Positions 1 to 5,966 of a DNA stretch of 6,219 nt are shown piece after piece. Positions within the stretch are counted from its first letter, which is position 1; each line of letters starts with the position of its first letter. The notes under the pieces were generated by a model. The model was not told the DNA's origin, did not search any database, and worked only from the letters and a program-made list of their open reading frames with translations. Both the position numbers and the translations under genes were made by a program. The stretch is from a virus (taxonomy: Duplodnaviria > Heunggongvirae > Uroviricota > Caudoviricetes). Location: IMG/VR virus record IMGVR_UViG_2713896736_000007. One strand, written 5' to 3'.

Positions 1-2092
1 GCCAGAGTCCACCCTGGTGTGTGGCATACGAGCCCCGGGGAAAGGATTTTTGATCGTCAATGGCGGGGAGTATTTCCAGTGCCGTGGCATCACGCCCGTC
101 CTGCGGAGCCGGCAGGGCACTCACCGCCTCCAGAACCGCCTTCTGCAGAACATCCGGATCGTAGTCACGACCATCACGCGGAACAGGAATATGGCTTACC
201 GCCTCCTTCACCATCTGTTCAAGCATCGGATGCACATCATCCGGAGTGATACTTTTACCGTCTGCCGGTACCGGTATTTTCGCGACCGCATCATTCACCG
301 CCTTCTGCAGAACATCCGGATCGTAGTCACGACCGTCGCGCGGAACAGGAATATGGCTCACTGCCTCTTTCACCATCTGCTCAAGCATCGGACGCACATC
401 ATCCGGGGTGATACTTTTGCCGTCTGCCGGTACCGGAATATTCGCAACCGCATCATTCACCGCCTTCTGCAGAACATCCGGATCGTAGTCACGACCGTCG
501 CGCGGAACAGGAATATGGCTCACTGCCTCTTTCACCATCTGCTCAAGCATCGGACGCACATCATCACCCGTCACGCACTTCTGTAATACCACAGACTGAG
601 AAGCCAGTTTTTCTTCAAACGTTTGTGCCTGCGCGGCTATTTTCTCCTCAAATGTGCGCTGTAAATCCGCCAGCACTGTGGAAAATTCTTCTCCCAGTGC
701 ACGAATAATGGACAGTTCCCGTTCCGTCATTTTCTCAGTATCCCCCCTGAACATCGCTTTCACCGCATCATGCTCTGTTTCACTGATTGCCTTATTACCG
801 TCAGATGCGCCGTCAGGCAGCTGTGATGAAACTGTTTTCCCGGCAGACGCGAACGGATCCTCACGGGCATCACGACGGGACAGCGCCTCCAGACTGTAGT
901 TCTGCTGCTGAAGATACAGTGCATCACCGCCGGCCAGGGGCGGCAGGTTCTCCCGTTTACGGGCCTCATTGGGCGTGAGAAGCGTATTTTTCACCGCATC
1001 CCCCAGCGTTTTCATGCGCCGCTCACTGTCCATTCTCAGCAGCGTGGTGACATCAAATTCTGTACTCTCGTTTTCCCCCGTTTCCAGCGCCTCATCCAGT
1101 AACAGTTCAATGGACTCAATCAGCGTCTGCAGGCACTGGGAATAATACTGCTGCTCCAGCGCCTCCACGTTGTCACTGGAAGGCGGTTGTCCCACGCCAA
1201 TCTTGTAGGCCGGGACACGGAACACCGAACAGACAATTTCAGCGGTCATCTTCAGTTGTTCCACCGTCTGCGCATCCACCGGTGAAAACGTCGTGGGGTT
1301 GTATTTTGCCCCGTTGCTCAGAATGGCCGTTTTCCCCGCATTTTCGCCTGTATACCCGCTGTCCCAGTTGCTCTTCAGTTTTTTCGCATTTTCTTCCGTA
1401 ATACTGCCGGGGATCTCAATCACCCCGGACGGCCTGCCGCCATTTCTGAAAAAAGACGTCGAATTTTCCTGAATATGATGCCCCTGCGTGGCCGCCAGCC
1501 CGGCGGCATACACCGGCGGCAATCCTATAAGCGGATGAAAAAAACAGTTAAACCGGTCGTGGATCACTTCCCGGGCAGGCACCGTCACCGCCTCCGTGAT
1601 CCCGCAGTTCCGGTCCGGCGTGATGCGGTAGAACACCTCGCCGTCATCCGCCACCAGAGGTTCAACCCGGCTCCAGTCCAGAATACGCAGTTCTTTGATC
1701 TGCCACCGGGCATTACGGATTTTCAGCACCACCGTATTGCCATGACGCAGTTTGGCGTTCAGCCACAGTTCAAAAAACTGGATGCGGTTCTGCTGGGCGT
1801 TGGGACGACGACAGAGGCGGGCAATATCCCCCCGGCGCGTTTCCCTGCGTATCCCATGCGCATCCGTCTGCATAAGACGCAGCCGCATTTTGGCGATATC
1901 CTGGGATATCAGCGAAATACATGCAAACACCGCATGAAAGGAGAGGACGGCTTCAGGATCGGCTTTCACGCCCTGCTGCCAGGCGCCGGAAAAGGGCTCA
2001 GCCACCGCCTGAAACAGGCTGGTCCAGCCCGCCTCTCTTACGTCACGTCCTGATTTCTGGTTTTTTCGGGTTCGCCGTAAAAGGTTCCACAT
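1..2092 (-). CDS. phage portal protein, HK97 family (Phage_portal-like core of about 400 aa) with a long C-terminal extension; 3' end runs off the window
   Basis: Manual minus-strand translation is open from the ATG at 2092..2090 to position 1, with the frame checked at 2092, about 1570, 1300, 1015, 600 and 64. A GGAG lies 8 nt upstream of the ATG and an in-frame TGA lies 13 codons upstream. The N-terminal region reads MWNLLRRTRKNQKSGRDV...AVFACISLISQDIAKMRL, and the core contains FFRNGGRPSGVIEIPGSITEENAKKLKSNWDSGY...AEIVCSVFRVPAYKIG, which resembles the FFxNGxxPSGVL...FRVP signature I recall for HK97 gp3-type portals. The core appears to end near plus 880 (...YLQQQNYSLEAL); everything from there to position 1 is extension. 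Not in the ORF track because there is no in-window stop. Confidence 0.85.
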   Translation of the reverse strand, partial: MWNLLRRTRKNQKSGRDVREAGWTSLFQAVAEPFSGAWQQGVKADPEAVLSFHAVFACISLISQDIAKMRLRLMQTDAHGIRRETRRGDIARLCRRPNAQQNRIQFFELWLNAKLRHGNTVVLKIRNARWQIKELRILDWSRVEPLVADDGEVFYRITPDRNCGITEAVTVPAREVIHDRFNCFFHPLIGLPPVYAAGLAATQGHHIQENSTSFFRNGGRPSGVIEIPGSITEENAKKLKSNWDSGYTGENAGKTAILSNGAKYNPTTFSPVDAQTVEQLKMTAEIVCSVFRVPAYKIGVGQPPSSDNVEALEQQYYSQCLQTLIESIELLLDEALETGENESTEFDVTTLLRMDSERRMKTLGDAVKNTLLTPNEARKRENLPPLAGGDALYLQQQNYSLEALSRRDAREDPFASAGKTVSSQLPDGASDGNKAISETEHDAVKAMFRGDTEKMTERELSIIRALGEEFSTVLADLQRTFEEKIAAQAQTFEEKLASQSVVLQKCVTGDDVRPMLEQMVKEAVSHIPVPRDGRDYDPDVLQKAVNDAVANIPVPADGKSITPDDVRPMLEQMVKEAVSHIPVPRDGRDYDPDVLQKAVNDAVAKIPVPADGKSITPDDVHPMLEQMVKEAVSHIPVPRDGRDYDPDVLQKAVLEAVSALPAPQDGRDATALEILPAIDDQKSFPRGSYATHQGGLW
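141..565. repeat. tandem direct repeat, 162-bp unit (54 codons), two full copies plus about 101 bp of a third; coding, inside the portal C-terminal extension
   Basis: The string ttctgcagaacatccggatcgtagtcacgacc begins at 141, 303 and 465, giving a period of 162. Copy 2 and copy 3 are identical base-for-base over 285..403 versus 447..565 (119 bp). Copy 1 differs from copy 2 at roughly one position in ten. On the minus strand each unit encodes two alternating 27-aa half-repeats, VRPMLEQMVKEAVSHIPVPRDGRDYDPD and VLQKAVNDAVANIPVPADGKSITPDD; a degenerate further half-repeat (LPAPQDGRDAT) lies toward position 1. Confidence 0.95.
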
Positions 2093-4304: not shown

Positions 4305-5966
4305 TTATATGAAAAAAACCGCATATTCTTTCTTTTTCGGTTCCGGGTTAAGGGACATCAGGGAGACCGCATTGAACAGCGCCATCAGCGGGTCAATTTT
4401 TCCCCGTCCACTGGCCTGTTTGGTGATAAGAATGGCGTTACCTTTAGGCTCCACCCGGGCATTGCCGACACACCAGGCCATCAGGGGCTGGTCACCATGC
4501 ACCAGCACCCCTTCAGCCAGTTTGCGCTCGGTGGTTTTAATGGCCCCGCCCAGTTTCCAGCCCTGGCTTATCCCCACCACAATTCCGTCGGGGATCCCGG
4601 CTTCCGCCAGTGAATCCAGAATCTGCCCCACCCCTGACGGGTCAATACCGATATGGTCCAGTAACTCAGCCTCATGAATGCGACGCACATATTCCGCCAC
4701 TTCCGCCGTGTCATCCCCGACACGCCGGACAATGGTCATATCTCCACAGGCAACAAGATCCTGAAACCGGGACGCCTCGCTCTTCCGTCGGACCACCGCG
4801 GTTTCATGCGCCCAGGCATGGCCCCAGCCCAGCCATTCGCGGGTTTCCCTGTCACGGCCAATCACGTACATTCCCAGCAGATCATCCAGGCCCCCGCCGT
4901 CAATCCCCACCGTCACCACATCAGCGCGCTGCAGGATATCGTCCAGGCTGACGCGCCTGCCCTGCTGCTCCCAGAAATCCGCACCCGCCCAGCGGTCAGA
5001 ACGCAGGGCAAGACCAATTTCCACATTGGCATGTTTTGACATGAAGCCACGAAATGCTTCCTCACCAGCCTCCCGGGCTTTACGGTACTCCCGGTACAGA
5101 AAAGCCTCATCCACCGAATAACCGAGATTCGGGTTAACCATGGCGAGGTTTTCCATCAGCAGGTGAGCCCCGCTTTCCACCATTTCAGGAGGATGCTCAA
5201 AAATCACCGGCAGAAAGTGCGGATCATGAATTTTGCCGTCACGGACATCCCGGGCGTACTGCAGTTTCTGTCTGAACACCCCGGCTGGCGGCTCATTCGA
5301 CTGGGTGGTCGTATACACCACAAACCCTTCCGGGCGGGAGGCAAGGCCGCCTATGGCTTCACGTAACATGTCCTCCGCTTTGTACTGCTTGCCAAATAAC
5401 CACAGTTCATCAATCAGCGTCCCCACGGACTTGATACCGGATACCGTATTCGGATCGGCAGCCACCACCTTCAGGGTGGTGTCCGTCACCCTGTGGGTGA
5501 TGGTCCGGATATGTGTCTGCACCTGACAGAGGTCATCCAGATCATCGTCCCGTCGTACCATATCCCTGGCAGGGTTGAAGGCGTTAGCCGCCACCTCCAC
5601 GGTCGGGGCCAGAATGGTGTAGCCCGCCGCCTGCCGCCAGTTCAGTAACAGCGCCGTCATCATGATCCCGGCAGCCAGCGTGGACTTGCTGTTTTTCTTG
5701 GGGATAAGGATAAAAACTTCCTTGATATGGCGTACACCGGTCTGCGCATCGTAGGAGCCAAACAGGGCCGCCACCAGGTCAAACACCCACTGTGCGCAGG
5801 ACTCCCCGAACGTCGGGCTGCCCGGTGCATCCACAATCCGCAGTTGTTTAAAAATCGCCAGGGCATGTGCGGCCTGCTCCGGATAAATCGGAGCCGGAAT
5901 AATCGACAGCCCCTTTTTCAGGCGCTCTGCCCAGTCCGGGCAGGCCGTGCTCCACACAGGTATCAT
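4305..5966 (-). CDS. terL: phage terminase large subunit (Terminase_1 / COG4626-like)
   Basis: 553-aa ORF from the track. The N-terminal half has a P-loop-like ILIPKKNSKST element (Walker A-type ATPase). The C-terminal half has acidic motifs typical of the RNase H-like terminase nuclease (VVTVGIDGGGLDDLLGMYVIGRD..., HIGIDPSGVG). The ATG at 5966 is preceded by GAGG with a 7-nt spacer and overlaps the upstream ORF stop as ATGA. Confidence 0.9.
   Translation of the reverse strand: MIPVWSTACPDWAERLKKGLSIIPAPIYPEQAAHALAIFKQLRIVDAPGSPTFGESCAQWVFDLVAALFGSYDAQTGVRHIKEVFILIPKKNSKSTLAAGIMMTALLLNWRQAAGYTILAPTVEVAANAFNPARDMVRRDDDLDDLCQVQTHIRTITHRVTDTTLKVVAADPNTVSGIKSVGTLIDELWLFGKQYKAEDMLREAIGGLASRPEGFVVYTTTQSNEPPAGVFRQKLQYARDVRDGKIHDPHFLPVIFEHPPEMVESGAHLLMENLAMVNPNLGYSVDEAFLYREYRKAREAGEEAFRGFMSKHANVEIGLALRSDRWAGADFWEQQGRRVSLDDILQRADVVTVGIDGGGLDDLLGMYVIGRDRETREWLGWGHAWAHETAVVRRKSEASRFQDLVACGDMTIVRRVGDDTAEVAEYVRRIHEAELLDHIGIDPSGVGQILDSLAEAGIPDGIVVGISQGWKLGGAIKTTERKLAEGVLVHGDQPLMAWCVGNARVEPKGNAILITKQASGRGKIDPLMALFNAVSLMSLNPEPKKKEYAVFFI

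Follow-up and report, generated by a model that had tools for sequence, protein, structure and literature searches.

The DNA examined here is a 6,219-nucleotide (nt) stretch of the IMG/VR virus record IMGVR_UViG_2713896736_000007, referred to below as the window. It raises the question of what kind of element carries a head-gene block in which the portal gene follows the capsid gene. All long open reading frames (ORFs) of the window lie on the minus strand, in the order small terminase subunit (terS), large terminase subunit (terL), protease-capsid fusion, small ORF and portal; adaptor, head-closure and tail genes come next. In the HK97 record the order is terS, terL, portal, protease, major capsid protein (MCP) and adaptor (Ad1). 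The departure from the HK97/lambda head order that the original prediction had noticed is real, since the HK97 record has its portal gene before the protease and MCP genes; the succession terL-portal-protease-MCP is not found in the window. The window is, with high confidence, the packaging and head-assembly block of a lambda-like siphovirus prophage of Escherichia coli O157 (Sp6-type copy). Judged by sequence comparison, the swapped order is an old, fixed and inherited trait of one branch of HK97-type modules found in alpha-, beta- and gammaproteobacteria, because the same order recurs in every relative inspected.

Relatives were found by tblastn against a phage collection, and gene order was then checked uniformly by tblastn in nine elements from these three classes. 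The order TerL, protease and MCP (fused or adjacent), small ORF(s), portal, adaptor was found in each inspected relative that has a related capsid protein: Salmonella FSL SP-016 (capsid identity 81%), Ralstonia YO182_2 (66%, to the Burkholderia query), Rhizobium RHph_X2_26 (52%), Pseudomonas PAJU2 (50%), Stenotrophomonas SOVA965 (43%), Burkholderia vB_SBP39 and a Burkholderia metagenome-assembled genome (MAG) (39-40%), and Moraxella Mcat6 (36%). This order also holds for two prophages of Klebsiella and for a second prophage of E. coli, which has diverged. Of the relatives inspected, the two that are most distant have the HK97 order: Yersinia P840, with 25% capsid identity, and Moraxella Mcat19, the latter matched through its protease only (37% over about 105 amino acids (aa)). 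FSL SP-016, PAJU2, vB_SBP39, Mcat6, RHph_X2_26 and SOVA965 share the order of the window at 35-81% protein identity. Protease and MCP are fused in FSL SP-016, RHph_X2_26 and PAJU2 (whose record names the product 'prohead protease fused capsid protein'); unlike in the window, they are encoded by separate, adjacent genes in vB_SBP39, Mcat6 and SOVA965. All six have a portal of about 440-465 aa, and the fibre-like protein, if present, has its own gene. A scan of genome contigs (using a two-sequence capsid alignment that gave poor peptide patterns) returned a single Burkholderia MAG locus, and a scan of viral contigs returned near-identical E. coli loci only. The simplest description is that a hairpin-bracketed protease-MCP cassette and the portal gene swapped places once, relative to HK97. 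Nothing suggests that the changed order affects head building.

The assignments on which this comparison depends are firm. The ORF coordinates first given for terL, the capsid fusion, the small ORF and the portal start were all confirmed, and the terminase, protease-plus-capsid and portal assignments were upheld by Pfam and PHROG profiles, which agree with each other (E values down to 0). In terL, both PF03354 and PF20441 score above cut-off, indicating ATPase and nuclease domains. The 645-aa ORF contains Peptidase_S78 (PF04586, aa 48-152, 34.7 bits for a cut-off of 21 bits) and Phage_capsid (PF05065, aa 386-635, 52.7 bits); its annotation varies ('major capsid protein', 'prohead protease', 'capsid and scaffold'). 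The ORF that starts at 2092 has 697 codons, is still open at base 1 and matches Phage_portal (PF04860) over aa 54-382 (269 bits). The proposal that the 1..2092 ORF is a portal therefore stands for its first part, the whole being really a portal fused to the next gene. The earlier account is also amended at the right edge, where the 3′ part of terS was recognized (the PHROG profile search assigns 6205-5963 to the terS end); terS is 564 nt long in the near-identical copy of strain 644-PT8 (25963-26526 of that locus).

Apart from its order, the module is of HK97 type. It shares with HK97 terS, terL, a PF04860 portal, an S78 protease with the same catalytic Ser/His, a PF05065 capsid protein with an N-terminal scaffold-like segment, Ad1, Hc1, gp10-like and terminator genes in next position, and hairpins around the protease-MCP region. 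As in HK97, no separate scaffold gene is found between terL and the adaptor gene. Residues 193 to about 300 of the fusion protein resemble a charged coiled-coil segment that begins like the N-termini of stand-alone MCPs, and could constitute a delta domain. The window differs from HK97 by the position of the portal gene after the protease-MCP region, by the single ORF encoding protease and MCP, and by an additional small ORF and a fibre-like gene around the portal gene. No similarity between the capsid protein and HK97 gp5 was detectable by BLASTP (E 0.31).

The features of the window are listed below, in the direction of reading.

Features of the 6,219-nt window, with their coordinates, strand and supporting evidence
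Feature	Coordinates	Strand	Evidence
terS, 3′ part (gene runs past right edge)	5963..6219	-	phrog_641 terminase small subunit, E 3.1e-30
terL, large terminase, 553 aa	4305..5966	-	Pfam TerL_ATPase and TerL_nuclease; phrog_9/7622
Terminator-like hairpin AACCGC-TGCG-GCGGTT then T7AT4, in the spacer between terL and capsid gene	4252..4280	-	consensus scan, sequence, fold
Prohead protease (aa 1 to ~165), linker, candidate coiled-coil delta/scaffold segment and HK97-fold MCP; one gene, 645 aa, GTG start	2304..4241	-	PF04586, PF05065; phrog_617, E 3.3e-261
Internal AAGGA (3680-3676) and ATG (3665-3663, Met193)	3663..3680	-	taken as retained start of ancestral stand-alone capsid gene
GC-rich hairpin, 9-bp stem, no T-run, just past capsid gene stop	2268..2289	-	fold
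Conserved ORF of 73 codons	2038..2259	-	phrog_829; last 55 nt overlap portal start
Portal proper, aa 1-454	731..2092	-	Pfam Phage_portal, E 6.6e-80
G6 tract, putting portal in frame with next gene	742..747	-	sequence, junction alleles
Fibre-like gene, fused to portal here; Met455 start (ATG 730-728), runs past left edge	1..730	-	phrog_1289
Tandem repeat of 162 nt (54 aa), 2.7 copies, within fibre-like gene	135..565	-	Tandem Repeats Finder (TRF)

The HK97 record indicates putative terminators before the protease gene and after gene 5, i.e. bracketing protease and MCP, and the two hairpins of the window mirror this arrangement. The hairpin at 2268-2289 has a predicted fold of -19 kcal/mol (z -3.1), which was equalled by none of 200 shuffled sequences. 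In FSL SP-016 and PAJU2, too, the fusion gene is preceded by the same GC stem with a T-run. In a late operon under Q antitermination, both hairpins may serve to control the expression level or the stability of the mRNA. A consensus scan found no sigma-70 promoter in the window, in line with a late operon that is transcribed from further upstream. The small ORF between capsid and portal genes is conserved (phrog_829, E 3.7e-39; 35% identity to the ORF in the same position of a Burkholderia phage). In Burkholderia, Salmonella, Klebsiella and Moraxella elements, the homologous ORFs (55-62 codons) have their end precisely where the portal gene begins; that of the window extends 18 codons beyond this point.

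It could be proposed that the order is itself functional, i.e. that having the portal gene by the adaptor genes, or the capsid gene first after terL, tunes expression timing or translational coupling. Such a role would be in keeping with the conservation of the order across three classes of Proteobacteria, with the stop-start coupling that invariably links the small ORF to the portal gene and the portal gene to the next one, and with the hairpins bracketing the capsid gene. However, relatives with the HK97 order make heads of the same kind, HK97 too has the hairpin-bracketed cassette (so that expression control looks alike in both orders), and simple inheritance in a tightly packed operon already predicts a conserved order within a lineage. 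A functional order is therefore considered unlikely, and inheritance of a single swap is preferred.

With E. coli O157 chromosomes the window shares 99.97% identity, and it differs by two bases from the chromosome of strain 644-PT8. It matches 1258 of the 5426 complete E. coli genomes (~23%), at a median of five places per genome; at least 80% of its length is covered, in the same order, in 1244 E. coli genomes. Ninety-three deposited phage genomes have 97-99% nucleotide identity over the window. These include the Shiga toxin (Stx) 2c phage 2851 (genus Pankowvirus), 1717, BP-4795, YYZ-2008 and many Stx1a, Stx2a and Stx2c phages. Phage Lys8385Vzw, whose module is 96.8% identical, has been induced and imaged and is a siphovirus with a long non-contractile tail (PMC7946995). 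The order and the protease-capsid fusion are identical in 2851, 1717, YYZ-2008, BP-4795 and Lys8385Vzw. In phage 2851, which has a fused portal ORF as well (859 aa), the module is followed by a complete lambda-like tail. The order is thus already known, as public annotated genomes have shown it from the BP-4795, 2851 and PAJU2 records onwards. Among the candidates put forward by the original prediction, a rearranged prophage lineage was the correct one: the synteny comparison that it had called for shows the order to be conserved among related capsids, and a phage group that routinely has it exists (the 93 phage genomes, ~23% of the E. coli genomes and the named relatives), so that it does not mark something uncharacterised.

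The copy of strain 644-PT8 lies in a lambdoid prophage adjoining potAB. On its upstream side are found Q, tRNA genes, holin and lysozyme genes, an HNH endonuclease gene and terS. Downstream are genes for head-tail adaptor, head closure, gp10-like protein, tail terminator, major tail protein and G/T chaperones and a shortened tape-measure gene, then insertion sequence (IS) remnants and the effector genes nleL, espN and espK. The last two are markers of prophage Sp6 of O157 Sakai (PMC10213463). No stx gene is present between Q and the lysis genes of this copy, which carries type III secretion system effector genes at its tail end instead; the prophage of the window is therefore a non-Stx, Sp6-type sibling of Stx phages. 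Besides lacking stx and lying by potAB with espK, espN and nleL, this copy differs from the Stx phages by its shortened tape-measure gene (2055 nt, against 3243 nt in 2851) and by the loss of the tail-tip genes. Compared with 2851, it lacks one 54-aa repeat unit, and the fused portal ORF is frameshifted by a 1-nt deletion about 35 codons before its end, just left of the window. The degraded parts of this prophage lie outside the window, at 19670-20000 and 13845-16690 of the locus. The genes within the window are intact, and the 644-PT8 prophage as a whole is defective. Because the matching genome copy lies in a decayed prophage, it is probably unable to make virions unaided.

In elements of E. 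coli, Salmonella and Klebsiella, an HNH endonuclease gene immediately precedes terS (L001, 26817-27182; L085, 2748-3116; L093, 1535-1900; L094, 1727-2095). It adjoins the terminase genes in the prophage of the window, the second E. coli prophage and the relatives from Klebsiella and Salmonella. A partnership between HNH protein and terminase has been described for HK97, and the HNH genes adjoining terS fit it; the HK97 equivalent is presumably gp74.

This context bears on the proposal that the block belongs to a satellite resembling the capsid-forming phage-inducible chromosomal islands (PICIs), with its own terminase, capsid and portal and with tails borrowed from a helper phage. The compact terS-terL-capsid-portal block in unusual order and the lack of most tail-tip genes in the matching copy would suit such an element. 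Capsid-forming PICIs are small and tail-less, whereas here adaptor, head-closure, gp10-like, tail terminator, major tail, G/T chaperone and tape-measure genes directly follow the block, and lysis, Q, replication and immunity genes precede it, inside lambdoid genomes of 45-57 kb. Near-identical modules (97-100%) occur in such genomes with Q, S/R/Rz lysis genes and a lambda-like tail, and the same module is present in inducible, imaged siphoviruses. The tail loss of this copy corresponds to decay via IS elements and effector genes, not to satellite design. A satellite is therefore very improbable: the flanks, when searched for tail and lysis genes, proved to contain them together with Q and HNH genes, which contradicts the satellite-like element, the capsid-forming island and the uncharacterised particle system first envisaged. 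Least credible is a recent local rearrangement or an assembly artefact of this genome, since, although O157 genomes carry many near-identical recombining lambdoid prophages that are hard to assemble (as the several matches per genome illustrate), the order is shared with 1244 genomes and 92 phage records, including Sanger-era sequences, and is kept in other genera at 35-50% protein identity.

In the phage lineage so defined, the protease-capsid gene could encode more than one product. Its N-terminal 165 residues are 29% identical to HK97 gp4 (E 4e-9). Ser110 aligns with the catalytic Ser114 of gp4 and His55 is beside gp4 His65, one register off; both residues are conserved in six homologues. 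Met193 aligns exactly with Met1 of the separate MCPs of vB_SBP39 and Mcat6, and its ATG is preceded by AAGGA at 10 nt, i.e. by a ribosome-binding site at an in-frame internal start. A Shine-Dalgarno (SD) sequence 6-10 nt upstream and the ATG are kept in the four fused genes inspected, although the residues encoded there differ. An exhaustive HMMER search found 1181 clusters (fifty-percent identity) of the fusion family at E<1e-30; the best 150 representatives include 127 full-length fusions (600-720 aa). Stand-alone capsid proteins start at query residues 193-196. Among the 127 fusions, a Met is present at the aligned start in 107 and within six columns of it in 115 (background for comparable windows, 22%). 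Since the start codon of the ancestral capsid gene and its ribosome-binding site are retained inside the fusion gene, this gene is somewhat more likely than not to yield two nested products, a protease-bearing and a protease-less capsid subunit. A full-text literature search found no paper on initiation at an internal start of protease-capsid fusions.

Lambda C/Nu3 and herpesvirus UL26/UL26.5 are nested in-frame protease/scaffold genes. Each pair makes a long protease product and a shorter, abundant product from an internal start, whose common C-terminal part targets the procapsid; the gene of the window would work alike. Unlike in these systems, the shared part would here be the capsid protein itself, with a scaffold-like N-terminus, and not a separate scaffold, and internal initiation is only predicted. 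Two distant homologues of the fusion protein (P0123 and P0132, about 1090 aa) have an N-terminal AAA ATPase domain (PF00004) ahead of the protease-capsid region. P0132 matches S78 and capsid profiles; P0123 matches the capsid profile, and the protease part of the query aligns with it too. This AAA ATPase-protease-capsid architecture is unexpected.

The second long ORF joins the portal (residues 1-454) to the following gene, from Met455. The portal ORF ends after exactly 454 codons in 48 of 68 closely related E. coli loci, and the part from Met455 is 46% identical to a stand-alone 347-aa gene product encoded after the portal gene in FSL SP-016. PAJU2 gp07 and post-portal ORFs of the Rhizobium and Stenotrophomonas phages are further relatives of this part. 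The junction depends on a G tract: G6, as in the window, gives the in-frame fusion, while with G5 the portal stops at 454 aa, its TGA overlapping the start codon of the following gene (ATGA). G5 was counted in 95 IMG/VR stretches and G6 in 41, making G6 the minority allele. G6 belongs mostly to one sub-lineage and both states coexist in only 4 of 60 flank haplotypes, so that rapid phase variation by a hypermutable G tract is not supported. A programmed ribosomal frameshift at the stop of the portal gene, which in the G5 allele reads A-AAA-UGA, was considered and remains pure speculation. At position 1705, portal codon 130 is TGG (Trp) in the window and GGG (Gly) in 644-PT8; it encodes Gly in the 2851 protein as well. 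This site, one of the two differences from 644-PT8, looks like a private substitution of the source genome.

Stand-alone homologues (350-405 aa) of the fibre-like part are widespread among E. coli, Shigella, Klebsiella, Enterobacter, Citrobacter, Kosakonia, Cronobacter and Pantoea, where most of them bear the name 'phage portal protein'; this label of the stand-alone phrog_1289 proteins probably spread from the fused allele of some O157 prophages. The fibre-like protein comprises a long N-terminal helix, then 54-aa repeats made of a helix plus PxPxDGxD (the 162-nt tandem repeat). The number of repeats differs from phage to phage, and the fused ORFs among the alleles have 779, 807, 859, 861 and 1023 aa; the Stenotrophomonas phage has collagen repeats in place of the repeat region. 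The C-terminal domain is beta-rich and gives weak signals of carbohydrate-binding modules (CBM) of families 5/12 (Pfam CBM_5_12, sub-threshold). A stand-alone homologue was modelled with AlphaFold2 at low confidence (mean pLDDT, the predicted confidence score, 55); with this poor model, Foldseek found no global match, its hits being local (about 50 residues) and to CBM5/12 chitin-binding modules. A PDB sequence search with the fibre-like part gave chance-level matches to designed helical repeats only. A CBM5/12-like tip is thus hinted at by the model and profile signals, and is not a finding. Fusion to the C-terminus of the portal should place the fibre-like protein inside the head, which is at odds with a carbohydrate-binding tip.

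The proposed working of the module combines direct observations (domain content, protease residues aligning with His/Ser of HK97 gp4, gene order and its conservation, phage context) with assembly steps drawn from established HK97/lambda biology. By analogy, the portal would nucleate a procapsid of capsid subunits, whose N-terminal coiled-coil segment would act as scaffold. The full-length protease-capsid protein would be made from GTG 4241 and the protease-less capsid protein from the SD and ATG 3665, and the nested pair would set the protease:capsid ratio, as lambda C/Nu3 does. Being covalently joined to some of the capsid subunits, the protease would enter the shell with them, and would then remove itself and the scaffold segment. 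The terminase would package cos DNA, presumably aided by the neighbouring HNH endonuclease. Both long ORFs could then be nested gene pairs rather than simple fusions: the protease-capsid gene, with a minor full-length product and a major protease-less product from the internal SD/ATG, general to the family; and the portal/fibre pair, existing as heritable G5/G6 alleles, with some phages tethering a repeat-rich protein with a CBM5/12-like tip to their portal. This joint reading is put forward tentatively, as a possibility that is less likely than the nested capsid start taken alone.

Several points weigh against the interpretation as a whole. The synteny survey covers about a dozen elements and is not a census. 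A full-text literature search found no paper that explicitly discusses this gene order, so that calling it known relies on deposited annotated genomes and not on a published statement; the paper on the Virfam classification of necks does not mention these phages. The frameshift in the portal fusion and the truncated tail module make the function of this particular copy doubtful. The two products of the fusion gene are predicted from sequence conservation only, and the Met could be conserved for a structural reason instead.

The gene order itself is a finding of little weight; it shows that 'terL-portal-protease-capsid' is not universal among HK97-type modules. Rules for annotation or prophage calling that use that order would misjudge this lineage in about a quarter of complete E. 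coli genomes. The predicted nested start and the portal-fusion allele are modest by-products. If true, the former would provide a simple, testable account of how the maturation protease is dosed and delivered in a large phage family. The latter, if it tethers the fibre-like protein to the portal, would reveal an unrecognised portal-associated virion component whose length varies via a 54-aa variable-number tandem repeat (VNTR).

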